NCBI RefSeq assembly: GCF_056712565.1
Contig: NZ_CM160072.1
DNA: 64,000 nucleotides
Strand: one strand, 5' to 3'
Shown: positions 3,022 through 30,832 of the stretch, one piece after another
Numbering within the stretch: the stretch's first letter is position 1
Layout of the letters: every line of letters begins with the position of its first letter
Notes under the pieces: model-generated
Seen by the model: the letters and a program-made list of their open reading frames with translations, nothing else
Told to the model about the DNA's origin: nothing
Databases searched by the model: none
Program-made: the position numbers and the translations under genes

Positions 3022-3846
3022 ATGAACGAACATCATCAACCTTTTGAAGAAATACGGCATTATGGCACTGAAGGGCAAGAATTTTGGTCAGCGAGAGAAT
3101 TGGCACCGTTACTGGATTATCGGGACTGGCGCAATTTTCAAAAGGTACTGGCCCGCGCGACTCAAGCGTGCGAAGCCAGCAATCAAGCTGCATCTGACCA
3201 TTTCGTTGAAACCACCAAAATGGTTGTATTAGGTTCAGGGGCTCAACGAGAACTTGAAGATGTTCATCTCTCCCGCTATGCCTGTTACCTGGTAGTACAA
3301 AACGGCGACCCTGCGAAACCGGTTATTGCGGCAGGGCAAACTTATTTTGCTATCCAGACCCGACGGCAGGAGCTGGCTGACGATGAAGCTTTCAGGCAAC
3401 TTCGTGAAGACGAAAAGCGTCTTTTTCTGAGAAATGAGTTGAAAGAACATAACAAACAATTAGTTGAGGCAGCGCAGCAAGCTGGGGTAGCGACAGCTAT
3501 CGATTTCGCCATATTTCAGAATCATGGTTACCGGGGACTGTATGGTGGATTAGATCAGAAAGCCATCCATCAGCGGAAGGGGCTGAAAAAGAGTCAGAAG
3601 ATCCTGGATCATATGGGTTCAACAGAACTGGCGGCTAATCTCTTTCGAGCTACCCAAACAGAAGAAAAACTCAAGCGGGATGGCGTGAATTCAAAACAGC
3701 AAGCTAATACCACACACTTTGACGTGGGTCGCAAGGTGAGGCAAACCATTCAGGAACTTGGCGGAACCATGCCTGAGGAGTTGCCGACCCCGCAGGTCAG
3801 CATCAAGCAGTTGGAAAACAGTGTAAAAATTACAGAGAAGAAATAG
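3022..3846 (+). CDS. dinD: DNA damage-inducible protein D
   Basis: Translation MNEHHQPFEEIRHYGTEGQEFWSARELAPLL... recognised as DinD; preceded by LexA box. Confidence 0.9.
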   Translation: MNEHHQPFEEIRHYGTEGQEFWSARELAPLLDYRDWRNFQKVLARATQACEASNQAASDHFVETTKMVVLGSGAQRELEDVHLSRYACYLVVQNGDPAKPVIAAGQTYFAIQTRRQELADDEAFRQLREDEKRLFLRNELKEHNKQLVEAAQQAGVATAIDFAIFQNHGYRGLYGGLDQKAIHQRKGLKKSQKILDHMGSTELAANLFRATQTEEKLKRDGVNSKQQANTTHFDVGRKVRQTIQELGGTMPEELPTPQVSIKQLENSVKITEKK

Positions 3847-4137
3847 CAGAAAATAAAAACTCTTTTTGTTGATTGAGATACCCGATGCGTAAGCCAAAGT
3901 CCAGGTGCGGTGAACACAATGGCTAAACATTGCACCTTTCTTTTCCACCCCTCAATTTTAACCTATTTTTTCTTATGCATTTTCTCAGACAAGAAGTCAG
4001 AAGAATGCATCTACGCTACAGAAAATAGCGATTTCACATAACTACAAGTTATCAATTTCCTCTCACCTTAAAAAATCTCAATCGTGACAATACGCACAAA
4101 TCGCTACCCTGCCAGACAGATTTTTAGGGAGAGAACC

Positions 4138-6475
<2,338 letters not shown>

Positions 6476-6476
6476 G

Positions 6477-6526
<50 letters not shown>

Positions 6527-6581
6527 GAATCGTCTTTATTGCAGTGAATCACAGGCAAATGCGGAAGCAGCTACGCAAAAT

Positions 6582-7315
<734 letters not shown>

Positions 7316-7369
7316 ACCTGATTTCAGTATCATGCCCAGTCATTTCTTCACCTGTGGAGCTTTTTAAGT

Positions 7370-7645
7370 ATGGCACGCGTAACTGTTCAGGACGCTGTAG
7401 AGAAAATTGGTAACCGTTTTGACCTGGTACTGGTCGCCGCGCGTCGCGCTCGTCAGATGCAGGTAGGCGGAAAGGATCCGCTGGTACCGGAAGAAAACGA
7501 TAAAACCACTGTAATCGCGCTGCGCGAAATCGAAGAAGGTCTGATCAACAACCAGATCCTCGACGTTCGCGAACGCCAGGAACAGCAAGAGCAGGAAGCC
7601 GCTGAATTACAAGCCGTTACCGCTATTGCTGAAGGTCGTCGTTAA
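7370..7645 (+). CDS. rpoZ: RNA polymerase omega subunit
   Basis: [39 protein letters not shown] recognised. Confidence 0.95.
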
Positions 7646-7663
7646 TCACAAAGCGGGTCGCCC

Positions 7664-9772
7664 TTGTATCTGTTTGAAAGCCTGAATCAGCTGATTCAAA
7701 ACTACCTGCCGGAAGACCAAATCAAGCGTCTGCGGCAGGCGTATCTCGTTGCACGTGATGCTCACGAGGGGCAAACACGTTCAAGCGGTGAACCCTATAT
7801 CACGCACCCGGTGGCGGTTGCCTGCATTCTGGCCGAGATGAAACTCGACTATGAAACGCTGATGGCGGCGCTGCTGCATGATGTGATTGAAGATACACCC
7901 GCCACCTACCAGGACATGGAACAGCTTTTTGGTAAAAGCGTCGCCGAGCTGGTAGAGGGGGTGTCGAAACTTGATAAACTCAAGTTCCGCGATAAGAAAG
8001 AGGCGCAGGCCGAAAACTTTCGCAAGATGATTATGGCGATGGTGCAGGATATCCGCGTCATTCTCATCAAACTTGCCGACCGTACCCACAACATGCGCAC
8101 GCTGGGCTCACTTCGCCCGGACAAACGTCGCCGCATCGCCCGTGAAACTCTCGAAATATACAGCCCGCTGGCGCACCGTTTAGGTATCCACCACATTAAA
8201 ACCGAACTCGAGGAGCTGGGTTTTGAGGCGCTGTATCCCAACCGTTATCGCGTAATCAAAGAAGTGGTGAAAGCCGCGCGCGGCAACCGTAAAGAGATGA
8301 TCCAGAAGATTCTTTCTGAAATCGAAGGGCGTTTGCAGGAAGCGGGAATACCGTGCCGCGTCAGTGGTCGCGAAAAACATCTTTATTCGATTTACTGCAA
8401 AATGGTGCTCAAAGAGCAGCGTTTTCACTCAATCATGGACATCTACGCTTTCCGCGTGATCGTCAATGATTCTGACACCTGTTATCGCGTGCTGGGCCAG
8501 ATGCACAGCCTGTACAAGCCGCGTCCGGGCCGCGTGAAAGACTATATCGCCATTCCAAAAGCGAACGGCTATCAGTCTTTGCACACCTCGATGATTGGCC
8601 CGCACGGCGTGCCGGTTGAGGTCCAGATCCGTACCGAAGATATGGATCAGATGGCGGAGATGGGTGTTGCCGCGCACTGGGCTTATAAAGAGCACGGCGA
8701 AACCAGCACTACCGCGCAAATACGCGCCCAGCGCTGGATGCAAAGCCTGCTGGAGCTGCAACAGAGTGCCGGTAGCTCGTTTGAATTTATCGAGAGCGTT
8801 AAATCCGATCTCTTCCCGGATGAGATTTACGTTTTCACACCAGAAGGGCGCATTGTCGAACTGCCTGCCGGTGCAACGCCCGTCGACTTCGCTTATGCGG
8901 TGCATACCGATATCGGCCATGCCTGCGTGGGCGCACGCGTCGACCGCCAGCCTTACCCGCTGTCGCAGCCGCTTACTAGCGGTCAAACCGTTGAAATCAT
9001 TACCGCACCGGGTGCTCGCCCGAATGCCGCGTGGCTGAACTTTGTCGTCAGCTCGAAAGCGCGCGCCAAAATTCGTCAGTTGCTGAAAAACCTCAAGCGT
9101 GATGATTCTGTAAGCCTGGGCCGTCGTCTGCTCAACCATGCGTTGGGTGGTAGCCGTAAGCTCAATGAAATCCCGCAGGAAAATATTCAGCGCGAGCTGG
9201 ACCGCATGAAGCTGGCAACGCTTGACGATCTGCTGGCAGAAATCGGCCTTGGTAACGCAATGAGCGTGGTGGTCGCGAAAAATCTGCAACATGGGGACGC
9301 CTCCATTCCACCGGCAACCCAAAGTCACGGACATCTGCCCATTAAAGGTGCCGATGGCGTGCTGATCACCTTTGCGAAATGCTGCCGCCCAATTCCTGGC
9401 GACCCGATTATCGCCCACGTCAGCCCCGGTAAAGGTCTGGTGATCCACCATGAATCCTGCCGTAACATCCGTGGCTACCAGAAAGAGCCAGAGAAGTTTA
9501 TGGCTGTTGAATGGGATAAAGAGACGGCGCAGGAATTCATCACCGAAATCAAGGTGGAGATGTTCAATCATCAGGGCGCGCTGGCAAACCTGACGGCGGC
9601 AATTAACACCACGACCTCGAATATTCAAAGTTTGAATACGGAAGAGAAAGATGGTCGCGTCTATAGCGCCTTTATTCGTCTGACCGCCCGTGACCGTGTG
9701 CATCTGGCGAATATCATGCGCAAAATCCGCGTGATGCCAGACGTGATTAAAGTCACCCGAAACCGAAATTAA
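7664..9772 (+). CDS. spoT: Bifunctional (p)ppGpp synthase/hydrolase SpoT (TTG start)
   Basis: 702-aa ORF starting TTG at 7664; HD domain and ACT/TGS regions recognisable; synteny. Confidence 0.95.
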   Translation: MYLFESLNQLIQNYLPEDQIKRLRQAYLVARDAHEGQTRSSGEPYITHPVAVACILAEMKLDYETLMAALLHDVIEDTPATYQDMEQLFGKSVAELVEGVSKLDKLKFRDKKEAQAENFRKMIMAMVQDIRVILIKLADRTHNMRTLGSLRPDKRRRIARETLEIYSPLAHRLGIHHIKTELEELGFEALYPNRYRVIKEVVKAARGNRKEMIQKILSEIEGRLQEAGIPCRVSGREKHLYSIYCKMVLKEQRFHSIMDIYAFRVIVNDSDTCYRVLGQMHSLYKPRPGRVKDYIAIPKANGYQSLHTSMIGPHGVPVEVQIRTEDMDQMAEMGVAAHWAYKEHGETSTTAQIRAQRWMQSLLELQQSAGSSFEFIESVKSDLFPDEIYVFTPEGRIVELPAGATPVDFAYAVHTDIGHACVGARVDRQPYPLSQPLTSGQTVEIITAPGARPNAAWLNFVVSSKARAKIRQLLKNLKRDDSVSLGRRLLNHALGGSRKLNEIPQENIQRELDRMKLATLDDLLAEIGLGNAMSVVVAKNLQHGDASIPPATQSHGHLPIKGADGVLITFAKCCRPIPGDPIIAHVSPGKGLVIHHESCRNIRGYQKEPEKFMAVEWDKETAQEFITEIKVEMFNHQGALANLTAAINTTTSNIQSLNTEEKDGRVYSAFIRLTARDRVHLANIMRKIRVMPDVIKVTRNRN

Positions 9773-9778
9773 TGTTTT

Positions 9779-10468
9779 ATGAACCCAACACGTTATGCAC
9801 GCATCTGCGAAATGCTCGCCAGGCGGCAGCCTGATCTGACCGTCTGCATGGAGCAGGTCCACAAACCTCATAACGTTTCTGCGATTATTCGTACCGCAGA
9901 TGCCGTTGGCGTACATGAAGTTCATGCTGTCTGGCCTGGCAGCCGGATGCGCACCATGGCTTCGGCAGCTGCGGGTAGTAACAGCTGGGTACAGGTGAAA
10001 ACGCACCGCACCATTGGCGATGCCGTCGCTCATCTGAAAGGCCAGGGCATGCAGATTCTGGCAACCCATCTTTCTGATAACGCTGTTGATTTCCGCGAAA
10101 TTGATTACACTCGCCCGACCTGTATTTTGATGGGACAGGAGAAAACGGGCATCACGCAGGAAGCGTTGGCCCTGGCGGATCAGGATATCATCATTCCGAT
10201 GATCGGCATGGTGCAGTCGCTGAATGTTTCCGTTGCCTCAGCCCTCATTCTTTACGAAGCCCAGCGCCAGCGGCAAAATGCGGGCATGTACCTGCGTGAA
10301 AACAGCATGTTGCCGGAAGCCGAGCAACAACGCCTGCTGTTTGAAGGCGGCTATCCGGTGCTGGCGAAAGTCGCAAAACGCAAAGGTCTGCCCTACCCCC
10401 ACGTTAATCAGCAAGGCGAGATTGAAGCCGATGCTGACTGGTGGTCCACCATGCAGGCCGCAGGGTAA
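9779..10468 (+). CDS. trmH: tRNA (Gm18) 2'-O-methyltransferase
   Basis: MNPTRYARICEMLARRQPDLTVCMEQVHKPHNVSAIIRTADAVGV recognised (SpoU family). Confidence 0.95.
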   Translation: MNPTRYARICEMLARRQPDLTVCMEQVHKPHNVSAIIRTADAVGVHEVHAVWPGSRMRTMASAAAGSNSWVQVKTHRTIGDAVAHLKGQGMQILATHLSDNAVDFREIDYTRPTCILMGQEKTGITQEALALADQDIIIPMIGMVQSLNVSVASALILYEAQRQRQNAGMYLRENSMLPEAEQQRLLFEGGYPVLAKVAKRKGLPYPHVNQQGEIEADADWWSTMQAAG

Positions 10469-10473
10469 GCGCG

Positions 10474-12555
10474 ATGAAAGGTCGCCTGTTAGATGCTGTC
10501 CCGCTCAGTTCCCTAACGGGCGTTGGCGCAGCGCTTAGTAACAAGCTGGCGAAAATCAACCTGCATACCGTACAGGATTTGCTCTTACACCTTCCTCTGC
10601 GCTACGAAGATCGCACACATCTCTACCCCATCGGTGAACTACTGCCGGGTGTTTATGCCACGGTGGAAGGCGAAGTGCTGAACTGCAATATCTCCTTCGG
10701 CGGTCGGCGGATGATGACCTGCCAGATCAGCGACGGTTCCGGCATTCTCACTATGCGCTTTTTCAACTTCAATGCGGCAATGAAAAATAGCCTGGCGACA
10801 GGCCGCCGCGTGCTGGCCTATGGCGAAGCAAAGCGCGGCAAATATGGTGCGGAGATGATCCACCCGGAATACCGCGTACAGGGCGATCTCAGCACGCCAG
10901 AGTTACAGGAAACGCTCACGCCGGTTTACCCAACTACGGAAGGCGTAAAGCAGGCTACGCTGCGTAAATTAACCGACCAGGCGCTGGATCTGCTCGACAC
11001 ATGCGCCATTGAAGAACTCCTGCCGCCGGAACTGTCACAAGGAATGATGACGCTACCGGAAGCGTTGCGCACTTTGCACCGCCCGCCGCCGACGCTACAG
11101 CTTAGCGATCTCGAAACCGGGCAGCATCCGGCACAACGCCGGCTGATTCTGGAAGAGTTGCTGGCGCACAACCTCAGCATGTTGGCGTTACGTGCCGGTG
11201 CACAACGTTTTCATGCTCAGCCGCTGAGCGCCAATGACGCGCTGAAAAATAAACTCCTCGCCGCCTTACCGTTCAAGCCAACGGGCGCACAGGCACGCGT
11301 AGTGGCGGAGATCGAGCGCGATATGGCGCTGGATGTGCCGATGATGCGTCTGGTGCAGGGCGATGTAGGTTCCGGTAAAACGCTGGTCGCTGCCCTCGCC
11401 GCGTTGCGTGCGGTTGCCCACGGCAAACAGGTGGCCCTGATGGCACCAACCGAATTACTCGCCGAGCAGCACGCCAATAACTTTCGTAACTGGTTTGCAC
11501 CGCTCGGTATCGAAGTAGGCTGGCTCGCCGGAAAACAGAAAGGTAAAGCACGACTGGCTCAGCAAGAAGCCATCGCCAGCGGTCAGGTGCAGATGATTGT
11601 TGGTACGCACGCCATTTTCCAGGAACAGGTGCAGTTTAACGGCCTGGCGCTGGTGATTATCGACGAACAGCATCGTTTTGGCGTACATCAGCGTCTGGCG
11701 TTATGGGAGAAAGGCCAGCAGCAGGGCTTCCATCCGCATCAGTTGATCATGACCGCCACGCCCATCCCCCGCACGCTGGCGATGACTGCGTATGCCGATC
11801 TCGATACCTCGGTGATAGATGAGCTGCCACCAGGCCGCACGCCAGTGACTACGGTCGCTATTCCTGATACCCGCCGTACCGATATCATTGACCGCGTGCG
11901 CCACGCCTGTATGACTGAAGGGCGTCAGGCGTACTGGGTTTGTACGTTGATTGAAGAGTCGGAATTACTGGAAGCGCAGGCGGCGGAAGCGACCTGGGAA
12001 GAGTTGAAACTGGCGCTACCAGAGTTGAATGTTGGCCTGGTACACGGACGGATGAAACCCGCCGAGAAACAGGCGGTGATGGCGTCGTTTAAACAAGGTG
12101 AACTACACCTGCTGGTTGCCACTACTGTCATTGAAGTCGGTGTTGATGTACCCAATGCCAGTCTGATGATTATCGAAAACCCGGAGCGTCTGGGTCTGGC
12201 GCAGTTACACCAGTTACGTGGCCGCGTGGGTCGTGGCGCGGTGGCCTCTCACTGCGTGCTGCTCTACAAAACGCCGCTCTCCAAAACCGCGCAAATCCGC
12301 CTGCAGGTACTACGCGACAGCAACGATGGTTTTGTGATTGCACAGAAAGATCTGGAGATTCGCGGCCCTGGCGAATTGTTAGGTACACGTCAGACGGGGA
12401 ATGCTGAATTTAAAGTGGCGGATTTACTGCGCGATCAGGCGATGATCCCGGAAGTTCAGCGCCTGGCGCGACATATTCACGAACGTTACCCACAACAGGC
12501 AAAAGCCCTGATAGAACGCTGGATGCCAGAAACAGAACGTTACTCGAATGCGTAA
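10474..12555 (+). CDS. recG: ATP-dependent DNA helicase RecG
   Basis: MKGRLLDAVPLSSLTGVGAA...; helicase motifs GSGKT, DEQH; ORF in track 10441..12555. Confidence 0.95.
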   Translation: MKGRLLDAVPLSSLTGVGAALSNKLAKINLHTVQDLLLHLPLRYEDRTHLYPIGELLPGVYATVEGEVLNCNISFGGRRMMTCQISDGSGILTMRFFNFNAAMKNSLATGRRVLAYGEAKRGKYGAEMIHPEYRVQGDLSTPELQETLTPVYPTTEGVKQATLRKLTDQALDLLDTCAIEELLPPELSQGMMTLPEALRTLHRPPPTLQLSDLETGQHPAQRRLILEELLAHNLSMLALRAGAQRFHAQPLSANDALKNKLLAALPFKPTGAQARVVAEIERDMALDVPMMRLVQGDVGSGKTLVAALAALRAVAHGKQVALMAPTELLAEQHANNFRNWFAPLGIEVGWLAGKQKGKARLAQQEAIASGQVQMIVGTHAIFQEQVQFNGLALVIIDEQHRFGVHQRLALWEKGQQQGFHPHQLIMTATPIPRTLAMTAYADLDTSVIDELPPGRTPVTTVAIPDTRRTDIIDRVRHACMTEGRQAYWVCTLIEESELLEAQAAEATWEELKLALPELNVGLVHGRMKPAEKQAVMASFKQGELHLLVATTVIEVGVDVPNASLMIIENPERLGLAQLHQLRGRVGRGAVASHCVLLYKTPLSKTAQIRLQVLRDSNDGFVIAQKDLEIRGPGELLGTRQTGNAEFKVADLLRDQAMIPEVQRLARHIHERYPQQAKALIERWMPETERYSNA

Positions 12556-17295: not shown

Positions 17296-17303
17296 AAATA
17301 AGG

Positions 17304-17329
17304 ACGCTAGCGGATATCAGCGCTAGCGT
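17304..17329 (-). terminator. Hairpin (ACGCTAGC...GCTAGCGT) with T-run on minus strand; likely terminator of the frz-like operon
   Basis: Inverted repeat just downstream (minus strand) of the cupin gene stop. Confidence 0.45.
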
Positions 17330-17338
17330 TCCCCGTTA

Positions 17339-18019
17339 TTAGCGCAAAATTCCATACTCACCGCACAATAACCATTTCACCGGTTCATCTTCTTCTATCG
17401 CCGGAAAACGTCCTCCCGGCTCAAGAAAATAATTATCGTGTTGGTCATCATTTACCATCGAGATTTCCCAGCCGAGAACAAACGCTTTTTCCGCCCAGAA
17501 GCGATGATACAGACGCGGCGGCAGGCAAATGCCCTGCCCCGGCTTTAGCACCAGCGTTTCACCAGGTTTCATGGTACGCCGCTGACCATCAACACTCACG
17601 GTAATGACTCGTTGATCATCACAGAGATTGGCTTCGTTGGCCCAGGCCAACCGCATGCATAAGTCTCCACCGCCCCGATTGAGGATATCTTCCATTTTGT
17701 GGGTGTGAAAATGCCAGGGAGTCTGCTGATCTTGTTGGATCTGCAACATTTTCTCAGCATACGGTTTTGGATATGCCGCCGACCCCAGCGCGCCGTTGCG
17801 CATCGTTAGCAGTGTTAGTCCCGTTTGGTTGAAATCACCACGACCAAAATCGGTGATATCCCAACCGAGCTGTAAGTCGACCACTTCTTGCCAGTTATCC
17901 CGTTCCCGCTGCAGCCAGTCATCCACCGTAAAATAGGCGAACTCTGGCAAACAAACGCGGAAGGTCTGCGCAATGGCATGTGCTTTATCAATAACATAAT
18001 TAATTTGTGAACGTTTCAT
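17339..18019 (-). CDS. Cupin-superfamily protein (possible sugar ketol-isomerase), last gene of frz-like operon
   Basis: ORF 17339..18058 in track, likely start MKRSQINY; matches the cupin gene described for the ExPEC frz operon. Confidence 0.7.
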   Translation of the reverse strand: MKRSQINYVIDKAHAIAQTFRVCLPEFAYFTVDDWLQRERDNWQEVVDLQLGWDITDFGRGDFNQTGLTLLTMRNGALGSAAYPKPYAEKMLQIQQDQQTPWHFHTHKMEDILNRGGGDLCMRLAWANEANLCDDQRVITVSVDGQRRTMKPGETLVLKPGQGICLPPRLYHRFWAEKAFVLGWEISMVNDDQHDNYFLEPGGRFPAIEEDEPVKWLLCGEYGILR

Positions 18020-18932
18020 TGGCTTCTCCGTTGCGCATAGCAAGCCAGGCAGCGCCACGCATTCCGCTACTGTCGCCGTGCTGTGCTTTTACAATGGGAG
18101 TGGTGAATTGATCGGTGAAAACCAGTGGAGCGACTTCTGCGTTCAGATCGGTGATAAGCAGTTCCACATTCGAAAGCCCGCCGCCGATCACAATCACGCC
18201 AGGGTCAACAACATTAACGATGGTTGCCAGCGTGCGGGCAAGCTGTTGGCGAAAACGTGCCACCTGCTGCATGGCACAAGCATCACCACGTTGTGCCAGG
18301 GTGACAATCGCCGCAGGAGTGAGCAAGTTACCAGTCATCTGTTGATAGCGTTCACTAAAACCGCTGCCGGAAACAAACGACTCCACGCAGTTGTGTTTGC
18401 CGCAATAGCAACTGACTGATGGACCATCTTCCTGCTCCGTATAGCCTGGCAACGTGATATGACCGCATTCGGCAGCATTTCCCCAGGCCCCTATAAACGG
18501 TCGTTGCTTGATGGCAATGCCACCGCCGCAGCCCGTACCAAGCGTAATACCAAATACCACGTCATAATCTTGCCCGGCACCGTCGCAAGCTTCTGATAGC
18601 GCGAAACAGTTACCATCATTGGCTATCACCACCGGTTGCCCAAGCAATTGCTGCAAATCAGCCTGTAACGCATGACCGTTAATCACCTGAATATTCGCGT
18701 TTTTAATCAGGCCAGTGAGTGGCGAGATACTGCCGGGTAAGGCGATCCCTGTCAGCATCGGTCGTTGAACGTCCCGCCTAATCTGCTCGATAAGCGCCAC
18801 AACGCATGAGACAAATTGTTGATATGTCGACTTTTGCGTCGGGCAGCGGTAACGGCGAATCTCCCAGCCATGCGCATCCATGACAACGGCGGCGATTTTG
18901 GTCCCACCAATATCCAACCCCAGATAGTGCAT
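18000..18932 (-). CDS. ROK-family sugar kinase
   Basis: MHYLGLDIGGTKIAAVVMD N-terminal ROK/ATPase motif; Cys-rich zinc motif (CYCGKHNC). Confidence 0.8.
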   Translation of the reverse strand: MHYLGLDIGGTKIAAVVMDAHGWEIRRYRCPTQKSTYQQFVSCVVALIEQIRRDVQRPMLTGIALPGSISPLTGLIKNANIQVINGHALQADLQQLLGQPVVIANDGNCFALSEACDGAGQDYDVVFGITLGTGCGGGIAIKQRPFIGAWGNAAECGHITLPGYTEQEDGPSVSCYCGKHNCVESFVSGSGFSERYQQMTGNLLTPAAIVTLAQRGDACAMQQVARFRQQLARTLATIVNVVDPGVIVIGGGLSNVELLITDLNAEVAPLVFTDQFTTPIVKAQHGDSSGMRGAAWLAMRNGEANETFTN

Positions 18933-18979
18933 ATCTCGTTCCTTGTTGCGTAAAAGGCGGGTCACCCCGCCCTTCTGGC

Positions 18980-19840
18980 TTAGTACAGTGATGCTTTACC
19001 GAGCGAACCGAACAGTTTCATTTTGTGGCGAATGACTTCCCGCGCCGCGTTAATCGCATCCGGATAGATGACGTTCGGGTCCCACCAGCTCTCTTTAGCG
19101 AGAATTTCACGCACTTTCTGGAAATAGGCGTATTTCATATCGCTGGAGATATTGATTTTGCCGACGCCGAGCGTAACTGATTCAGCAATCTCCGCGTCCG
19201 GGTTTGCCGAACCACCGTGTAGCACCAGCGGAATATCAATACGTCCGGCAATGTCGCGCAAAATGTCCATTTGCAGCTTCGGCTGCATCCCTTTTGGATA
19301 GATGCCATGCGCTGTACCAATCGCCACAGCCAGTGTGTCGGCACCTGTACGAGCAATAAAATCGGCGGCCTGCGCCGGATCTGTGTAGGTCACTTGTGAA
19401 ACACCACCTTCTACCGACGTTCCTGTTTGTCCGATGGTTCCCAGTTCACCCTCAACCGACACGCCAACCGCGTGAGCGAGGCGAACCACTTCTGCGGTCA
19501 GCGCCACGTTTTCTTCATACGGCAGCAGCGAACCGTCGATCATTACTGAGGTAAATCCGCAGCGAATCGCACGCAAAACATGCTCTACAGAGGCACCATG
19601 ATCGAGGTGCAGTACAAACGGGACCGGACTACGCTGGGTAATTTCGCGAACGTGAGCGAAAAAGGCATCGCCCACAAAATCATGTTCGCTGGGATGGATG
19701 GCAATAATCGCCGGAGTATTTGTCGCTTCTGCTTCATCCACGACTGCGCGAAGGAAACAGTTATCCGCCACATTAAATGCGCCAATGGCAAAGCCGTGCT
19801 GGCGGGTAGGTTGCAGTAATTCTTTCATCGAAACTAACAT
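18980..19840 (-). CDS. Class II ketose-1,6-bisphosphate aldolase (GatY/KbaY-like), paralog 2
   Basis: 286 aa; LHLDHG and GELG motifs typical of class II aldolases. Confidence 0.8.
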   Translation of the reverse strand: MLVSMKELLQPTRQHGFAIGAFNVADNCFLRAVVDEAEATNTPAIIAIHPSEHDFVGDAFFAHVREITQRSPVPFVLHLDHGASVEHVLRAIRCGFTSVMIDGSLLPYEENVALTAEVVRLAHAVGVSVEGELGTIGQTGTSVEGGVSQVTYTDPAQAADFIARTGADTLAVAIGTAHGIYPKGMQPKLQMDILRDIAGRIDIPLVLHGGSANPDAEIAESVTLGVGKINISSDMKYAYFQKVREILAKESWWDPNVIYPDAINAAREVIRHKMKLFGSLGKASLY

Positions 19841-19920
19841 GTTAAATCTCCAGTTTCAGCGTGTAGTCCGCCCTGCCGGTGCGTTATTGCACTGGCATAA
19901 AGGCCATGACAGAAAATGAA

Positions 19921-20772
19921 TCAGGCTTTGCCGATAGAGCCGCTCGCCTGTAAATACGGTGTAATCGCTTCTTCGAAGGCCAGTTCCATAGCTTTCAGCG
20001 CGTCCACCAGTTCAATGGATATATCGTGACAGAGGGTATGCAGGAGCGCGGATTTCCCCCGTTCAAAAATGGCCGCCCCCACGTTGATTTTTGCTACCCC
20101 CAGCGTCGTACAGAGCTGGAGCTGATCGAACGGCGTACCGCTACCGCCATGTAATGCCAGAGGCACGCTCGAGCAGCGCGAAATCTCCGCCAGACGCTGA
20201 AAATCAATAGCAGGTACAACGCCAGGCGCGTACATGCCGTGCGCCGTGCCTACCGAGACGGCCAGTAGATCAATGCCTGTCTGCGCGATAAACGGTTCCA
20301 CATCAGTGGGTTGCGTCATCAGGTCTGCATTGGCGGCCTGGTCGTAACGCGGCGCATCTGCCAGATGGCCCAGTTCGCCTTCCACGCAGAGCTGCGCGCT
20401 GGCGGCGAGTTCCACCACCGCCCTGGTCTGGCGCACGTTTTCCTCCAGGGGAAAAGCAGAAGCATCAATCATTAATCCGCTGAAACCAGCACGAAACGCC
20501 TGACGAATACAGTCCGGATTTTTGCCATGATCAAGCGCCAGAGCGACCGGTACTGAGGCAGATTCCGCGAGCGTTTTAACCACTGCCGCCGCGACGGGTG
20601 CAGGAAAATGCGCCAGATGCCCCTGATAGAGATTGAGAATGATCGGAGCGCGATTCTTCTCCGCCACGCGGATAGCTGCGTGAGCACTTTCCAGATTCAT
20701 ACAGTTGATCGCCAGCAAGGCGTAATGTTCATGCCAGGCTTTCATCACCATACTTTTCATATCGGCAAACAT
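19921..20772 (-). CDS. Class II ketose-1,6-bisphosphate aldolase (GatY/KbaY-like), paralog 1
   Basis: 283 aa; LALDHG and EGELG motifs. Confidence 0.8.
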   Translation of the reverse strand: MFADMKSMVMKAWHEHYALLAINCMNLESAHAAIRVAEKNRAPIILNLYQGHLAHFPAPVAAAVVKTLAESASVPVALALDHGKNPDCIRQAFRAGFSGLMIDASAFPLEENVRQTRAVVELAASAQLCVEGELGHLADAPRYDQAANADLMTQPTDVEPFIAQTGIDLLAVSVGTAHGMYAPGVVPAIDFQRLAEISRCSSVPLALHGGSGTPFDQLQLCTTLGVAKINVGAAIFERGKSALLHTLCHDISIELVDALKAMELAFEEAITPYLQASGSIGKA

Positions 20773-20783
20773 AGGGCCTCCGG

Positions 20784-21875
20784 TTATTCGAGGGTGAAAG
20801 TGATCTCTTCATCTTTCAGCTTTTGATCGCTCAGTTCGTCAAACTCTTCGTCGCGTTCCGTTACCGGTTTCTTCCAGAGTGAAAGCATCACGCCACAAAT
20901 CACCGTGCCTATACCCAGCGCCAGGCAAAACAGCAGAGGATGGGTGAACAGAGGCACAACAAACATGCCGCCATGCGGAACCGGACTCTCCACGCCCCAC
21001 ACCATGATTAAGCCGCCCGCGACCGCCGATGCCACCACACAAGATCCCACTACTCGCAGCAGGTCACGCGCGGCGATCGGAATGACTCCTTCAGTGATCA
21101 TGCAGATCCCCATCGGAAACGCGGCTTTCAGCGCCTCGCGCTCCGCACGGGTGTATTTATGGCGTGTCAGTAAGAACGAAAGTGTGATGCCAAACGGAGG
21201 GATGATTGAGCCGACAAATTTCACGGCTTCTGGTCCGTAGACGCCACTGACCAGCAAGCCATCGGAAAACAGCGACATGGTTTTGTTGACCGGACCACCG
21301 AAATCGAAGGTTGCCATCGCGCCAAGTATGGCCCCCATCAGGAAGCGCGATCCGCCCTGCATCGACTCGAGCAAATGAATCAGTGCTTCTTGTAACCAGG
21401 CGATGGGTTTACCAATCAGCGTCATCATTAACAGCCCACCGATAATGGTGCTTAATACCGGCAACACCATGATTGGCATGAGTCCTTGCATCGACTGCGG
21501 CAGGCGGATATAGCGTTTAAGTAGCAAAATGGTGTAGCCCACCAGGAAACCACCCAACATACCGCCAATAAATCCGGTATGGATTTGCCCACAGAGAAAG
21601 CCGACAATCAGGCCCGGGGCAAATCCGGGACGATCGGCAATAGAATAGGCAATTGCCGCGCTAATCAGCGGCACAATCAGCCCCATTCCCCAGCCGCCAA
21701 TCTGATTAAGCATCCACGGGATTGTTCCTGTTTTTTCACCAACATCTGTACCGCCAAGAACTTGCCCCAACGCAATACATATCCCGGCGGCCACAATAAG
21801 GGGTATCATCCACGAGATGCCGGTTAATAAATGTTTTTTAATTTCCTGTGAAACCGGAATTTTATTTTCTTTCAT
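20784..21875 (-). CDS. PTS fructose-family EIIC permease
   Basis: 363-aa polytopic membrane protein; gene order IIA-IIB-IIC. Confidence 0.8.
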   Translation of the reverse strand: MKENKIPVSQEIKKHLLTGISWMIPLIVAAGICIALGQVLGGTDVGEKTGTIPWMLNQIGGWGMGLIVPLISAAIAYSIADRPGFAPGLIVGFLCGQIHTGFIGGMLGGFLVGYTILLLKRYIRLPQSMQGLMPIMVLPVLSTIIGGLLMMTLIGKPIAWLQEALIHLLESMQGGSRFLMGAILGAMATFDFGGPVNKTMSLFSDGLLVSGVYGPEAVKFVGSIIPPFGITLSFLLTRHKYTRAEREALKAAFPMGICMITEGVIPIAARDLLRVVGSCVVASAVAGGLIMVWGVESPVPHGGMFVVPLFTHPLLFCLALGIGTVICGVMLSLWKKPVTERDEEFDELSDQKLKDEEITFTLE

Positions 21876-21899
21876 ATTAAGATCCCTCCAGTATAAGGA

Positions 21900-22214
21900 T
21901 CATTTGTTTCCCAGTGATTTTTCGACCTTTTCAAGAAATTGAACGGGCGATTTAATGACGATCTCTGTCTTTACTCGCACAATACGTTTATTGGTGAAGC
22001 GTTCTTCTCCTTTTATTTTCACATCTACAGCAAGAATCACGACGTCAGCAGCAGAGATATCTGCCGCCTGTAATTCATTTTCTGTACCAATGGTTCCCTG
22101 GGTTTCAACTTTAATGGTATGGCCCAGAGCTTTTGCTCCTTTGATTAACTTTTCACGAGCAATATAGGTATGAGCAATACCCGCCGTACAGGCGGCAACA
22201 CAGACAATATTCAT
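21900..22214 (-). CDS. PTS fructose-family EIIB
   Basis: 104 aa; N-terminal CVAACTAGIAHTY phospho-cysteine motif. Confidence 0.8.
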   Translation of the reverse strand: MNIVCVAACTAGIAHTYIAREKLIKGAKALGHTIKVETQGTIGTENELQAADISAADVVILAVDVKIKGEERFTNKRIVRVKTEIVIKSPVQFLEKVEKSLGNK

Positions 22215-22231
22215 GACATACTCCCTGTTAT

Positions 22232-22702
22232 TTAGAAGACATCGGATTGTGCATACTGACTAAAGAGATCAATGATTTTTTGCGGACTCGTCTCAACTAA
22301 CAATTGTTCTATGATGTCATCATCCGCCAGCGCGCCCGCGACCTGGGAAAGTAAACGGATATGGGTGGTATTTTGATCTTCAAGACGTACCGCAAATAAA
22401 ATAATACAGCGCACGCTACTGCCATCCAGCGTTTCCCAGGGAATATCCTGGCGGGTACGGCCAATTGCCAGCGTAGTATTAATCACAGCTGAAGATTTAC
22501 CATGCGGGATCGCAATATGATTTTCAAAACCAGTCGAGCCTTCCGCTTCGCGCTGCCAGACATCTTTAATAAAGGTTTCCCGACAATCGATCGCACCATC
22601 TTTTTTGAGAAGATTAGTTAATTCTTCAATCGCCTCCGCTTTATTCGTCGCTTGCATATCTAAAATAACGCGATTCGTATTCAGGATTTTTGTTATGTCC
22701 AT
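22232..22702 (-). CDS. PTS fructose/mannitol-family EIIA
   Basis: 156 aa; IAIPHGK phospho-histidine motif. Confidence 0.8.
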   Translation of the reverse strand: MDITKILNTNRVILDMQATNKAEAIEELTNLLKKDGAIDCRETFIKDVWQREAEGSTGFENHIAIPHGKSSAVINTTLAIGRTRQDIPWETLDGSSVRCIILFAVRLEDQNTTHIRLLSQVAGALADDDIIEQLLVETSPQKIIDLFSQYAQSDVF

Positions 22703-22728
22703 TCGTCATACCTCATAAAATTCTGACA

Positions 22729-24282
22729 TTAAATTTCAACGACCCGAGACGTCGCATGATGTAATTTTTCCGTAATCACCATTTCAGTGACCCGCTTAAT
22801 ATCGGCATCATTAAAAAAAGCGGTAACATAAGCGACCGGCATAGTGACTGTAGGCAAATTAATGGTCGAAATAATCAGTTCGATATTGTCAGGCAAAACC
22901 TGTGATAAATTCGCTGCTGAAATAACATCAACAATCGTCCATTCAGGAAATGCTCGCAGAATACGGCTTTTCAGTAGATGCGAAGTTCCGATTCCGGTTG
23001 AACAGACCAGTAATACACGTTTACGGGCAATTTGCCGCTCCATCGCAGCCTGAAAATGAACGGTCAGGTAACCCACTTCATCCTCGCTCACTGCATTCTC
23101 ACCCCAGGTTTTAAATACCTGATTCACCACATATTGCGTCAACCGCCAGACATCCGCTAATTCTGCTTTAATATCTTCCAGCAATGGATTACGGATATGA
23201 ATGCGATAATTTAGACGGTTAATCAGCGGCTTAATATGCACCAATAAGCCATCATATAATGCGCTGTCTTCACTAAAATCGCAGTCCACGATGTCACTGA
23301 ATACCGTAATTAAACGCCAGGTAATCAGACGCGCTTCATTGCTGGCCTGCATATGTGAAATAATGCTAACATCTTTTTGTCCATCAATCGCCACACCTGA
23401 TGAAATGATATATTGATAAATAAACCAGACTTCATCATCGGGCAATGTATGTGCAATTCGTTGTTCTATCTTATGAATCATCTGACTGGCAACATTAAAG
23501 ATATTTTCATCATATTGTCTGGTTTGATCTTCTTCTCTTGATAACGCATTCCCGTGCGTGTTGCGATACATCATAATAAGGATGTGAGTAAAAATGTTAA
23601 CGTAATAAGGTTCTCCCAAAGACCAACTTAATTCATTTTCCATATCCAGTAACAATGACTGGACAAATAACACCTCTTCTTCTCCAAAATAATGGACTAA
23701 TGCTTTATAGCTTCCGGGATCCAGACGTGAATACACGACACCTTGCGGCTCATTATGGTTAATAATGCCGTTAATCAGTAATGCCATTGCCTGTCGGACT
23801 TGCCCTTCACTACCTTCAATATGCGTACCACTTGGACTGCGGATCAACGATAACCCCAACGGCGCAAGCCAGGACTCAATTACTCTCAGGTCATTAACAA
23901 TAGAGGCTCCGCTGATAAAGTAGCGTTCTGACAATTTACTGATCGACGTTTCATTCGGTGTTTCACTTAATAACTGCGACGCTATTTTAACGCGCCTGGC
24001 ATTATTCATTACACCATCAATCTCTTCACATTCTGCCACCAACAAATGATCAAGATGCAGCAAATCAGCAATATTCTCCGCACTTAACATCACACCCGCG
24101 CCAGCACGCTTCTCAACATTTATTCTCCATTGTCCCAGCCATTGCTCAAGTAAACGTAAATCACGTTGAATGGTTTTTTCCGAAACATTTAAATAGCCGG
24201 CAATCGTAACAATAGTCGTATATTCCCTTCGAGGTAAAAGGAATCGTAATAATCTGTTTTGTCGCGAGGTAATCATTTGCAT
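22729..24282 (-). CDS. PRD-containing transcriptional regulator of PTS operon (Mga/MtlR-like; HTH + PRD + EIIB-like domain)
   Basis: 517 aa; N-terminal HTH, central PRD-like region, C-terminal CSTGIGTS EIIB-like motif. Confidence 0.75.
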   Translation of the reverse strand: MQMITSRQNRLLRFLLPRREYTTIVTIAGYLNVSEKTIQRDLRLLEQWLGQWRINVEKRAGAGVMLSAENIADLLHLDHLLVAECEEIDGVMNNARRVKIASQLLSETPNETSISKLSERYFISGASIVNDLRVIESWLAPLGLSLIRSPSGTHIEGSEGQVRQAMALLINGIINHNEPQGVVYSRLDPGSYKALVHYFGEEEVLFVQSLLLDMENELSWSLGEPYYVNIFTHILIMMYRNTHGNALSREEDQTRQYDENIFNVASQMIHKIEQRIAHTLPDDEVWFIYQYIISSGVAIDGQKDVSIISHMQASNEARLITWRLITVFSDIVDCDFSEDSALYDGLLVHIKPLINRLNYRIHIRNPLLEDIKAELADVWRLTQYVVNQVFKTWGENAVSEDEVGYLTVHFQAAMERQIARKRVLLVCSTGIGTSHLLKSRILRAFPEWTIVDVISAANLSQVLPDNIELIISTINLPTVTMPVAYVTAFFNDADIKRVTEMVITEKLHHATSRVVEI

Positions 24283-24385
24283 TTTTTACCCTTATCACAG
24301 ATTAAGAAGCCCCATATGGAAGAGCTTCAGTTGCCATCTCTGAGGGTAAATATAAAGCAGAATAATTTCACAACAATACTAAAAT

Positions 24386-24404
24386 CTGTCCGTAATCCGG
24401 ACAG
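24386..24404. promoter_or_regulatory. Palindrome CTGTCCG-TAATC-CGGACAG upstream of the frz-like regulator gene; candidate operator or RNA hairpin
   Basis: Perfect 7-bp inverted repeat read from sequence; role unverified. Confidence 0.3.
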
Positions 24405-24531
24405 TGATAAAACAAAGCAAGGCGGTTAAGGGATATTTTTCAACACAGATCACATTTTCGTGATGAATAATCGTGATCATGCTCGCAAATACGATGGAAG
24501 AAATATTTATTACCAGATGTGAGATTATTTA

Positions 24532-24562
24532 CCGGATACGACACAAAACCATTCGTATCCGG
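24532..24562 (-). terminator. Hairpin CCGGATACG...CGTATCCGG downstream of yicI; likely yicJI terminator
   Basis: 9-bp inverted repeat with 13-nt loop, A/T-rich flank on minus strand. Confidence 0.45.
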
Positions 24563-24576
24563 CATTCTTCAATAGA

Positions 24577-28579: not shown

Positions 28580-28674
28580 GGAAGATCGTCGTCTCCGGTG
28601 AGGCGGCTGGACTTCAAATCCAGTTGGGGCCGCCAGCGGTCCCGGGCAGGTTCGACTCCTGTGATCTTCCGCCA
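28580..28674 (+). tRNA. selC: tRNA-Sec (selenocysteine tRNA), 95 nt
   Basis: Sequence GGAAGATCGTCGTCTCCGGTGAGGCGGCTGGACTTCAAATCCAGTTGGGGCCGCCAGCGGTCCCGGGCAGGTTCGACTCCTGTGATCTTCCGCCA read directly; matches E. coli selC from memory. Confidence 0.95.
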
Positions 28675-28726: not shown

Positions 28727-29764
28727 ATGTCAGACAAAGACTTAACCCAGCCCCCAGCAGGCGAGTTTATTATGTTTGCCAGCGGTGACGGAAGAGTGCG
28801 TGTTGAATGTCGCTTTGAGTCAGACACAATCTGGTTATCCCAGGCGGCAATGGCTGAACTGTACGATAAAGATGTTCGCACTATTAACGAACATTTAATC
28901 AATATATTTTCCGAAGGTGAACTTGTTCAAAACTCAACCATCCGGAAATTCCGGATAGTTCGCCAGGAAGGAAAACGTCAGGTTTCCAGAGAGATAGACC
29001 ATTACAACCTCGAAGCCATTCTCGCTGTCGGCTATCGCGTTCGCTCGCCTCGAGGCACGCAATTCCGCCAGTGGGCAACGCAGACGCTTCAGGAATACCT
29101 GATCAAAGGTTTTGTGATGGACGATGAGCGGCTGAAGAATCCGCCTGTCGGTTCATCGGTTGTGCCCGACTATTTTGATGAGATGCTTGAACGCATCCGC
29201 GATATTCGCGCCAGCGAGCGTCGGGTATATTTGCGGGTGCGGGAGATCTTTGCTTTAGCTGCCGACTATCAGCCATCGCTTAAAGAAACCACGCAATTTT
29301 TTCAAACCATCCAGAATAAACTGCATTTTGCCTGTACCGGGCATACCGCTGCGGAACTCATCCACAAACGAGCAGATGCCAGCCAGCCGCACATGGGCTT
29401 GACCAGTTATAAAGGTGAAGAGGTACGTAAGGGCGACGTGACGGTGGCAAAAAATTATCTCACCCAGGATGAGGTCAGCGAACTTAATCGCGTGGTTAAT
29501 ATGTGGCTGGACTTTGCCGAGGATCAGGCCCGTCGTCGTCAGCAAGTCTTTTTGCGCGACTGGCAGGATAAGCTGGATCAGTTCCTGCAATTTAACGACC
29601 GAGAGGTTCTACAGGGCGCTGGTAAAATCAGCAAGAAAATGGCCGATGAAAAAGCGCAGGCGGAGTATGTTCAGTTTGCCGAACAACAACGGCGCTTAAA
29701 AGAAGCCGAAGGCGAGAAGGATATCGCTGGTTTGCTACAGTGGAATAAAGAGTCGAAAAAGTAG
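28727..29764 (+). CDS. RhuM-family (virulence protein RhuM-like) protein, 345 aa
   Basis: N-terminal region ...IWLSQAAMAELYDKDVRTINEHLINIFSEGELVQNSTIRKFRIV... resembles RhuM family as I recall it; RhuM is selC-linked in Salmonella SPI-3. Confidence 0.65.
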   Translation: MSDKDLTQPPAGEFIMFASGDGRVRVECRFESDTIWLSQAAMAELYDKDVRTINEHLINIFSEGELVQNSTIRKFRIVRQEGKRQVSREIDHYNLEAILAVGYRVRSPRGTQFRQWATQTLQEYLIKGFVMDDERLKNPPVGSSVVPDYFDEMLERIRDIRASERRVYLRVREIFALAADYQPSLKETTQFFQTIQNKLHFACTGHTAAELIHKRADASQPHMGLTSYKGEEVRKGDVTVAKNYLTQDEVSELNRVVNMWLDFAEDQARRRQQVFLRDWQDKLDQFLQFNDREVLQGAGKISKKMADEKAQAEYVQFAEQQRRLKEAEGEKDIAGLLQWNKESKK

Positions 29765-29875
29765 CCCGGAATCCCCCCAAACGCCATACGCAAAACCATT
29801 TGGGGGTACTTATGGGGTTACTCATTTATCAAATTCAAAATATAAACATTAAATCAATAACTTAACCATCAAATG

Positions 29876-29903
29876 CGACTCCTGTGATCGCCAAAATGCC
29901 TCT
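29876..29903 (+). repeat. Direct repeat of selC 3' end (att-like scar)
   Basis: 28 of 32 positions match the selC 3' end plus downstream flank, with a 4-bp gap. Confidence 0.6.
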
Positions 29904-29971
29904 TCAGTGATCCCCATCCTGCTTATTTCTGAGCAACCTGACCCTGCTGATGTATCTGGTAGTATGACAGA

Positions 29972-30193
29972 GTGATTCGTTTTTCTTGCCGAGTGTACGA
30001 AAACGTCTTCCTTGCCACCGACTATCAACCGTCACTCAAAAAAACCTCTCTTTTTTTCAAGCTATCAAGAATAAGTTGCATTTTATCTGCACCGGACACC
30101 AGCCATCCATATATGGCTTTTACCTGCTACAAAGATGAAGAAGTGCATAAATGTGATGTTAAAACAATCAAAGAAAAATTACATGCGCAATAA
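29972..30193 (+). pseudogene. Decayed fragment of a second RhuM-like gene
   Basis: Translation ...FLATDYQPSLKKTSLFFK...YMAFTCYKDEEVHKCDV... parallels residues ...FALAADYQPSLKETTQFFQ...HMGLTSYKGEEVRKGDV... of the intact copy. Confidence 0.45.
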
Positions 30194-30333
30194 TTTCACT
30201 ATAACATTATAATCCATGGTGAAAATAACACTGCACAAGGATTGTCATCATCAAACTCATCGGAACTATTTTTTCTGTCGTCATTGGTGTAATACTGATT
30301 GTAAGTATCCTTTCAGGAGATTATTTTTGCCGT

Positions 30334-30832
30334 GTGGGGCATGGAACTTGTAAAGCAGCCAAAAGCGCTAGGCATTTAATTGAAAGTAAAGAGAAAAACA
30401 GAAGTAGTCGCGTCAAAGTCTTTAGCACGCATATTAATTTGAGTCATCCAGCGGCATCCTGGCTAGCAACTCAAACTTGCGCTAACAATATATTCAATCT
30501 GCTTCAAAACAATAATGCCATTTATTTATTCAAAAACGATAATAAAATTGAACTGCGAATGGGGTATGATTCTTTTTTCTCTATTGAAACGATTGATAAA
30601 ATTAACAAAGAAAACATCAAAGAAATAAAACTAAAAAATGATACAACATATGTTTCTCTTCCTAATCCAACCATTTTAATAACCAACGACATCAACACCT
30701 GAACGACAGTTTTCTATTTCTGTTCTGGATGATGATAACAAAGAAAATCTACCTACCGATACCGCACCTTGTTTTACAATTGGTATTCCTGATGAATATA
30801 CTAAAGCCATAGAGTTATTGAACATTAAATAA
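30334..30832 (+). pseudogene. AT-rich hypothetical ORF apparently disrupted by a +1 frameshift near 30700 (122-aa frame then about 40 more codons in the next frame)
   Basis: Two adjacent open frames of similar AT-rich, Asn/Lys/Ile-rich composition; no family recognised. Confidence 0.3.

Follow-up and report, generated by a model that had tools for sequence, protein, structure and literature searches.

The frz operon between yicH and yicI in a B2-type Escherichia coli genome: a probable ancestral enterobacterial locus with a putative ketose-1-phosphate pathway

The eight-gene frz operon

The 64,000-nucleotide stretch of contig NZ_CM160072.1 (RefSeq assembly GCF_056712565.1) analysed here, hereafter the window, carries at positions 17339–24282 eight genes that almost certainly are the frz operon of E. 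coli, led by its own regulator gene. Eight co-directional open reading frames on the minus strand cover this interval exactly. The list of reading frames and the Prokaryotic Genome Annotation Pipeline (PGAP) record of a genome identical over this interval, E. coli ATCC 11775 = DSM 30083, from which gene starts were taken, both confirm an earlier sequence-only reading that had described eight genes here. In the direction of transcription these are frzR (22729–24282), encoding a PRD-containing putative activator according to its Pfam domains and named "BglG family antiterminator" by PGAP; the fructose/mannitol-type EIIA (22232–22702; TIGR00848), the fructose-type EIIB (21900–22214; TIGR00829) and the fructose-type membrane permease EIIC (20784–21875; TIGR01427) of a phosphotransferase system (PTS); aldolase A (AldA, 19921–20772; PGAP "class II FBP aldolase", where FBP stands for fructose-bisphosphate, PF01116 type) and aldolase B (AldB, 18980–19840; PGAP "ketose-bisphosphate aldolase", NCBIfam PRK08185 subfamily); a ROK kinase (18000–18932; PGAP "ROK protein"); and a cupin of the D-lyxose/D-mannose isomerase family (17339–18019; Lyx_isomer, PF07385), whose gene overlaps that of the kinase by 20 bp. 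Starts at 18058 and 18965 in the list of reading frames are alternative start codons upstream of the PGAP starts. The family of each product, as assigned from NCBIfam, Pfam and PDB matches, agrees with the gene list of the sequence-only reading (PRD/Mga regulator, EIIA, EIIB, EIIC, two aldolases, ROK, cupin). The remaining genes are spaced by 11–80 bp, which fits a single operon. The flanking gene yicH ends at 17295 and is convergent with the operon, while the stop codon of yicI begins at 24577, with yicI and yicJ co-directional and upstream. The yicH–yicI interval (17296–24576) thus measures 7281 bp, compared with 52 bp in K-12 MG1655, as expected from the claim that it is short in K-12.

The frz operon was reportedly described in extraintestinal pathogenic (ExPEC) and avian pathogenic (APEC) E. 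coli by Rouquet et al. in the Journal of Bacteriology in 2009 (191:4427). The sequence-only reading had matched gene content and order to that operon, and the match extends to site and length: in a genome paper of 2026, region GR27 of the APEC/ExPEC strain BEN2908, lying between yicH and yicI at 3991916..3999198, is named the frz operon (PMC12928451) and leaves 7281 bp between the flanking genes, equal to the interval in the window. The comparison, which rests on gene content, order, site and interval length, reveals the same eight gene types and no material difference. The finding is therefore already known, and the operon is a known system, as had been proposed, intact and at its usual site. 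Identity among the strains compared in the BEN2908 paper exceeds 95% (PMC12928451). Reviews link frz to survival in late stationary phase and under oxygen restriction and to a fim switch biased ON, adhesion and invasion are also among the reported phenotypes, and frzorf4 is used routinely as an APEC typing marker. As frz is thus a published fitness- and virulence-associated locus, its presence in a B2 genome is expected.

In a megablast search of 5426 complete E. coli genomes, the operon stretch was 100% identical to ATCC 11775, to which the window shows ~99.98% identity with four mismatches across 37 kb. The type strain DSM 30083T is a phylogroup B2 strain obtained from a cystitis patient's urine, and this near-identity upholds the earlier suggestion of a non-K-12, probably B2/ExPEC-like strain; our phylogroup assignments rest on the type strain and on divergence proxies. 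At a coverage of at least 80%, frz is carried by 1605 of the genomes (~30%), with 1326 matching records at an identity of at least 99% and 281 at 95–99%. Complete identity to an annotated genome combined with this frequency excludes a chance pattern. A probe for the K-12 yicH–yicI junction was contiguous in 3815 genomes, so that with 1605 occupied sites the locus comes close to a two-state polymorphism; K-12-like genomes lack the operon. Human, chicken, cattle, gull and wastewater isolates are among the carriers, and frz is not restricted to ExPEC, being present in ~30% of complete genomes including those of gull, cattle and wastewater isolates. Among a total of 1611 frz matches, one lies on a plasmid-typed record and one genome holds two copies.

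A six-gene core with variable add-ons

All three PTS proteins score above the cut-offs of their fructose-family profiles (EIIA, TIGR00848, 127 bits versus 103.5; EIIB, TIGR00829, 100 bits versus 76.9; EIIC, TIGR01427, 311.5 bits versus 157.6), and the phosphorylatable residues of this family are present, as His67 of EIIA and Cys9 of EIIB are conserved. EIIC is the most conserved protein of the cassette, with 96–97% identity in Citrobacter and 70–79% in Sebaldella, Paenibacillus and Metabacillus.

AldB reaches 525.9 bits with NF006042 (cut-off 405), which places it in the NCBIfam PRK08185 subfamily ("hypothetical protein"), and it passes only the subfamily models PRK08185 and TIGR00167 and no equivalog; its best PDB relatives are class IIb FBP aldolases. 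AldA falls below all NCBIfam equivalog cut-offs, has a divergent C-terminus, with its PDB matches mostly confined to residues 4–235, and is less conserved than AldB among Enterobacterales (59–87% versus 78–93%). Both proteins and their orthologues retain the LDHG, VE(G/A)ELG, GTAHG and LHGGS motifs, and AldA also has VEGELG and KIN. When AldA and AldB orthologues were aligned with K-12 GatY, KbaY and YdjI, the catalytic Asp-His, the loop Glu, two further zinc-binding His residues and the Asn motif proved to be kept in both paralogues, which therefore look catalytic as judged from their residues. The DPR motif of GatY, KbaY and the FBP aldolases of known structure (1RV8, 7NCC) is DPN in AldB and has no equivalent in AldA; it is also absent from YdjI. 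The arginine of this motif, Arg331 in E. coli FbaA, binds the distal C6 phosphate of the substrate.

Relatives of the cassette were collected by scanning one genome per species with the Frz EIIC, yielding 80 loci in which gene presence was scored by tblastn. AldB is present in 78 of these, and 71 of the 78 have both aldolases, including loci from Listeria and Lachnospiraceae; the tandem paralogues are accordingly a regular feature and not the oddity for which they had been taken. The 78 loci divide into 12 with both ROK kinase and cupin, 12 with the cupin only, eight with the kinase only and 46 with neither. The conserved unit is a six-gene core of regulator, EIIA, EIIB, EIIC, AldA and AldB that extends from Listeria to Pantoea, and the ROK kinase and cupin are variable, dispensable 3' add-ons; the cassette is modular and widespread. 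Genes downstream of the six-gene versions are mostly unrelated neighbours, while in Anaerostipes genes for a different ROK kinase and a ribokinase-like kinase lie downstream of the core. Most versions from Citrobacter, Pantoea and Pectobacterium lack the ROK gene, and in Izhakiella australiensis a 127-residue, 69% identical ROK remnant (9522–9902 of locus L012; also in L039) lies between aldB and the cupin gene, indicating that there the kinase gene decayed and was not simply never present.

Conservation within the core is uneven over long distances. EIIC and EIIB are 70–79% identical to the E. coli proteins in loci from Sebaldella, Paenibacillus (two loci), Metabacillus and Halobacillus (L073, L077/L083, L076 and L078, respectively), as is AldB in Sebaldella and Paenibacillus, whereas the regulator is only ~40% identical across these loci, a disparity that points to transfer of the transport and aldolase genes of the core between phyla with a regulator that was replaced or diverges fast. 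The literature already calls the Listeria lmo2133–2138 cluster a frz homologue, and in L. monocytogenes it shares the complete core (regulator, EIIA, EIIB, EIIC and two class II aldolases) but has no ROK kinase or cupin and a regulator of 28% identity; in Listeria marthii (L093) EIIC and AldB are 54–62% identical.

The add-on enzymes resemble proteins that act on free sugars. The ROK kinase scores 318.8 bits with the Mak fructokinase model NF007108 (cut-off 443), with NagK as next closest relative, lacks a helix-turn-helix (HTH) domain, and has the DxGxT, ExGH and CxCGxxxC zinc motifs conserved in 21 orthologues. The cupin aligns over its full length with Z5688, the D-lyxose/D-mannose isomerase of E. 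coli O157:H7 (PDB 3KMH/3MPB; E = 9e-64, ~50% identity counted from the alignment), which is of the same family and length and whose HxH...E...H metal motif aligns; His103, His105 and His172 are conserved in orthologues. In contrast, the genomic context of Z5688 differs, and the Frz cupin remains under the cut-off of the isomerase equivalog NF051472 (270.7 bits versus 350). We did not locate the Z5688 gene cluster of O157:H7, and the 49–53% identical cupins that were looked up are encoded by a lone gene or beside an ABC transporter. An integrase-linked island of Salmonella enterica (L006/L007; ~7600–14500 of L006) encodes a Lyx_isomer cupin 61% identical to the Frz protein together with an MFS sugar transporter, a mutarotase (aldose epimerase), a class II aldolase, a PfkB kinase, a zinc-dependent alcohol dehydrogenase and a DeoR regulator. 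By analogy with fucose and rhamnose pathways, this isomerase-kinase-aldolase-reductase layout would serve some aldose.

Control of the operon and its proposed pathway

Pfam places HTH_11, Mga, two PRD and PTS_IIB-like (EIIB Lac/Gat-like) domains in FrzR and finds no CAT domain, and the profiles of the antiterminators GlcT and LicT match the PRD region only, far below their cut-offs. The PGAP name, which would make FrzR a BglG/LicT antiterminator, was rejected because a CAT domain is missing and HTH_11 and Mga occupy the N-terminus; lacking CAT, FrzR would be a DNA-binding PRD activator. Its HTH, Mga-like HTH, PRD1, PRD2 and EIIB(Gat/Lac)-like domains, in which His and Cys residues are conserved, resemble the arrangement in activators of the MtlR/LicR/ManR/Mga class. 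FrzR ends at residue 517, after the EIIB-like domain, so that the EIIA(Mtl/Fru)-like domain found at the C-terminus of MtlR and LicR is missing. Conservation across 73 orthologues is at least 95% for His233 (PRD1), His349 (PRD2) and Cys427 (EIIB-like), and by analogy with MtlR/LicR-type regulators the PTS would control FrzR by phosphorylating His349 as well as Cys427 or His233.

A conserved control region lies upstream of frzR at 24349–24487, where a footprint across 14 loci from nine genera delineates a series of minus-strand elements: a CRP-like TGCGA-N6-TCACG (24487–24472), the block TGTGATCTG (24454–24446), a palindrome CTGTCCGGA-N-GGACAG (24404–24386) that is followed by ATTTAGTATTGT (together 24404–24370), and a -10-like TATATT (24354–24349). 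The leader and ribosome-binding region of frzR are also conserved in this alignment, and a scan of the yicI–frzR spacer with the sigma-70 consensus found no promoter. The palindrome also scored as a terminator-like hairpin, but both half-sites are nearly invariant across the 14 loci, and we therefore reread it as a conserved palindromic operator; the hairpin may still act as an attenuator. From this conservation we infer functions for the upstream elements that would include autoactivation of frzR by FrzR at the palindrome, assisted by CRP.

Further RNA-level elements lie within and at the end of the operon, all on the minus strand. The 80-nt aldA–aldB spacer (19841–19920) contains a GC-rich GCC..GGC stem-loop without a T-run at approximately 19870–19905. 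Spacer length is 78–81 nt in nine Enterobacteriaceae and the hairpin is conserved, most pairs being invariant and compensatory changes occurring in two of 14 pairs, which amounts to little covariation. This stem-loop may govern processing or stability of the mRNA and so set the ratio of AldA to AldB. A terminator-like hairpin with a T-run (17304–17329) marks the operon end, 10 nt past the cupin stop codon and 9 nt past yicH.

Our literature search on frz, fru2, lmo2133–2137 and Z5688 found no described substrate, in line with the sequence-only reading, which had called it unknown. The original study is likewise said to have found none, and its abstract reportedly stated that the phenotypes depend on the metabolic enzymes as well. 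Considered as a whole, the following mechanism, built from protein families and conserved residues, is tentative and has somewhat less than an even chance of being right. When preferred sugars are absent, phosphorylated HPr would switch FrzR on at PRD2, and when the Frz substrate is absent, phosphorylated Frz EIIA/EIIB would switch it off at Cys427 or PRD1. The site of action of FrzR would probably be the conserved palindrome, which lies immediately 5' of a weak -35, with CRP taking part. EIIABC, of the Fru family, would import a 2-ketose, or a similar sugar, and phosphorylate it most likely at C1; AldA and AldB would cleave the resulting ketose-1-phosphate directly to dihydroxyacetone phosphate (DHAP) and a free aldose; an aldose of mannose or lyxose configuration would be converted to the ketose by the cupin; and phosphorylation of the free sugar by the Mak-like ROK kinase would open its way into glycolysis. 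The stationary-phase, low-oxygen and fim-switch effects would then be downstream consequences of Frz catabolism and PTS signalling.

Several features argue for this mechanism. The phosphorelay residues of the PTS proteins and FrzR are intact, and the footprint upstream of frzR counts on the same side. Both aldolases lack the arginine for the distal phosphate and so would be expected to cleave a ketose-1-phosphate, and in the 46 of 78 loci with the core and neither add-on there is no kinase, so that the PTS product itself must be the aldolase substrate. All add-ons (ROK, the cupin isomerase, and the ROK and ribokinase-like kinases of Anaerostipes) act on free sugars, consistent with capture of an aldose product, and the Salmonella island independently pairs a Lyx_isomer cupin with a class II aldolase. 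A precedent is offered by YdjI of E. coli K-12 (PDB 6OFU), an L-glycero-L-galacto-octuluronate-1-phosphate aldolase. It shares its family with AldA and AldB (E = 1e-38 to 1e-49), also lacks the DPR arginine and, as its product name indicates, has a ketose-1-monophosphate as substrate. However, YdjI is only distantly related to AldA and AldB, and its gene cluster, which includes a PfkB kinase and dehydrogenases, is not a PTS cluster.

The canonical bisphosphate route, in which, as for galactitol or tagatose, the PTS delivers a ketose-1-phosphate, a ROK or host kinase adds the 6-phosphate, and one aldolase yields DHAP and glyceraldehyde-3-phosphate with its paralogue as a GatZ/KbaZ-like helper, appears unlikely. 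NCBIfam and PGAP do name both proteins ketose- or fructose-bisphosphate aldolases, AldA is clearly the less conserved of the two, and the architecture resembles gatYZABCD: in the galactitol and D-tagatose pathways (E. coli gatYZABCD; tag genes of Klebsiella oxytoca and Bacillus licheniformis) a class II aldolase from the same family likewise receives its ketose or hexitol phosphate from a PTS, and a pair of adjacent genes is aldolase-related. The resemblance breaks down in its details, as the PTS of gat is a Gat-family system, the non-catalytic GatZ is a different protein, the DPR arginine that both Frz aldolases lack is present in GatY and KbaY, and the tag pathway has a PfkB tagatose-1-phosphate kinase for which the frz core has no counterpart. 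AldA was rejected as a GatZ-like non-catalytic helper because, like AldB, it keeps all catalytic and zinc residues. Most versions of the cassette have no kinase. Free sugars are the characteristic substrates of ROK kinases, and the one encoded here has Mak and NagK as its nearest relatives. The aldolase sequences point away from hexose bisphosphates, which narrows the search for the substrate.

A mainly sensory or regulatory PTS, in which Frz senses an environmental sugar, phosphorylation of the PTS and FrzR modulates the fim switch and stress fitness, and catabolism is incidental, is compatible with direct cleavage of a ketose-1-phosphate but as an explanation in its own right is rather improbable. 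While the reported survival, fim-ON, adhesion and invasion phenotypes and the lack of a known growth substrate would suit such a role, the six to eight enzyme and transporter genes are intact and their catalytic residues conserved from Firmicutes to Enterobacterales, which argues for selection on a real catabolic pathway. The reported dependence of the phenotypes on the metabolic enzymes speaks against it as well.

One extension of the ketose-1-phosphate mechanism, which we offer as speculation with a small chance of being correct, is that the core handles a sugar new to the PTS, namely a higher-carbon plant 2-ketose (heptulose, octulose or nonulose) that would be phosphorylated at C1 and cleaved to DHAP and a tetrose, pentose or hexose. 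If true, this would explain both the lineage-specific add-ons for free aldoses (mannose/lyxose isomerase, ROK and ribokinase-like kinase) and the frequency of the core in plant-associated Pantoea, Erwinia, Pectobacterium and Kosakonia. On paper, by stereochemical reasoning alone, D-mannose plus DHAP corresponds to D-erythro-L-gluco-nonulose, a sugar reported from avocado.

Ancestry of the locus

The sequence-only reading had described frz as an accessory island inserted between yicH and yicI. The comparative evidence reverses this polarity: frz is very probably an ancestral locus of the Enterobacteriaceae downstream of yicJI that was kept by B2 and some other E. coli lineages. The synteny yicJ-yicI-[frz]-yicH recurs in 19 species-level loci of the tblastn table, from a cryptic Escherichia (Escherichia sp. 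MOD1-EC7003), many Citrobacter, Klebsiella michiganensis/grimontii, Phytobacter, Superficieibacter and Mangrovibacter, such that the same chromosomal site is occupied in at least six enterobacterial genera. Divergence of frz is in step with that of its flanks at three phylogenetic depths: nucleotide identity to the window is 95.9–99.4% for frz genes and 97.1–98.1% for flanks in the frz-positive E. coli A1_136 (the same flanking genes being 97.1–98.1% identical between window and K-12), 92.7–98.4% and 94.9–98.0% in Escherichia sp. MOD1-EC7003, and 74–83% and 77–84% in C. braakii. Annotation and junction comparison located no integrase, tRNA or direct repeats at the operon borders. An integrative genomic island was therefore rejected, given borders without visible integrase, tRNA, attachment sites or repeats and a site occupied in six genera.

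Empty sites retain a trace of the operon. The only partial frz locus among the 5426 genomes, that of E. coli HS-02 (NZ_CP172818.1), retains 267 bp from the 5' end of frzR (4002–4267 of locus L003, corresponding to window 24015–24282) together with the entire yicI–frzR spacer. Its frzR remnant is frameshifted and abuts yicH directly, and yicH itself stops prematurely, three codons early. The left junction reads yicH-TAA-A|CATCAATCTCTTCACATTC..., where CATCAATCTCTTCACATTC is window 24015–24033, within frzR. In the empty sites of K-12, E92 and C21 the corresponding sequence is yicH-TAA-A-CATCAATCTC|GCCGGGTACGAC..., in which the GCCGGGTACGAC part belongs to the yicI terminator hairpin (approximately 24531–24563 of the window, minus strand), which in a diverged form is the sole part of the yicI–frzR spacer retained in K-12. 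The 10-mer CATCAATCTC that follows yicH in these three genomes is internal to frzR (24015–24024, plus strand), forms the left end of the HS-02 remnant and occurs only once in the 64-kb window with both strands counted; at its position O157:H7 has AATCAATCTC, in which the counterpart of CATCAATCTC is ATCAATCTC. A frzR remnant of 9–10 nt is thus retained in all four K-12-type empty sites examined, and HS-02 looks like a surviving intermediate of the deletion behind them. In the ancestry of K-12, O157 and similar strains, frz would have been lost by two nested deletions, first of ~6.7 kb (~17297–24014) and then of ~0.5 kb (~24025–24530). Together, the synteny, the divergence matched to the flanks, the clean borders and the frzR scar with HS-02 indicate that the occupied state is ancestral and the empty site derived, and the notion of an inserted accessory island is not sustained.

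Horizontal acquisition of the cassette and its insertion between yicH and yicI in the B2/ExPEC lineage, with K-12 preserving the original empty site, is very unlikely: the lower GC content of the regulator/EIIA/EIIB half, the integration hotspot selC 4 kb away, an eight-gene copy beside tRNA-Sec and an integrase fragment in another contig, the high similarity of core proteins across phyla and the presence of the operon in only ~30% of complete genomes would all suit it, but it is contradicted by the shared site in at least six genera, divergence equal to that of the flanks at all three depths, borders free of integrase, tRNA and direct repeats, and the frzR-derived 9–10 nt in the examined empty sites with their HS-02 intermediate.

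Taking the identity as frz, the ancestral origin and the ketose-1-phosphate mechanism together, we assign this combined explanation a probability of roughly 0.65. Several observations weigh against it. For the origin, the frzR scar has been read in only four empty genomes plus HS-02; GC content is mosaic, at 39–46% over frzR, EIIA, EIIB and the 5' end of the EIIC gene (21500–24500) versus 51–59% over the remainder (17300–21500), which could reflect an old mosaic assembly or differing constraints; and EIIC, EIIB and AldB are 70–79% identical to proteins of Firmicutes and Fusobacteria. In addition, the enterobacterial contig L010 (Logan SRR22857687; its cupin cluster labelled Salmonella enterica) has an eight-gene frz at 3726–11124 on the other side of yicJI, adjoining a 55-residue integrase fragment and tRNA-Sec (selC), with an empty yicI–yicH junction. 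This arrangement implies that frz can also travel as cargo of a selC island and, along with the cross-phylum identities, shows that horizontal transfer has taken place at some depth. For the mechanism, the literature search turned up no frz substrate, the role of the DPR arginine is taken over from Arg331 of E. coli FbaA, and the specificities of the ROK kinase and cupin are below NCBIfam equivalog cut-offs. Although frz is widely treated as acquired by ExPEC, the balance of evidence points to an old, core-like enterobacterial locus lost in K-12, O157 and similar lineages, and its association with virulence would then mean retention by a lineage and not acquisition.

Elsewhere in the window, an Rfam scan of 13.5–29.5 kb returned tRNA-Sec as its sole match, encoded by selC at 28580–28670. 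In place of the yicT and setC of K-12, selC is followed at 28727–30702 by a small insert encoding a RhuM-family protein and a hypothetical protein, which resembles a remnant of a selC-associated island in the type strain. Farther downstream, the near-identical ATCC 11775 record annotates a frameshift in yidJ (sulfatase-like; ~48583–50075).

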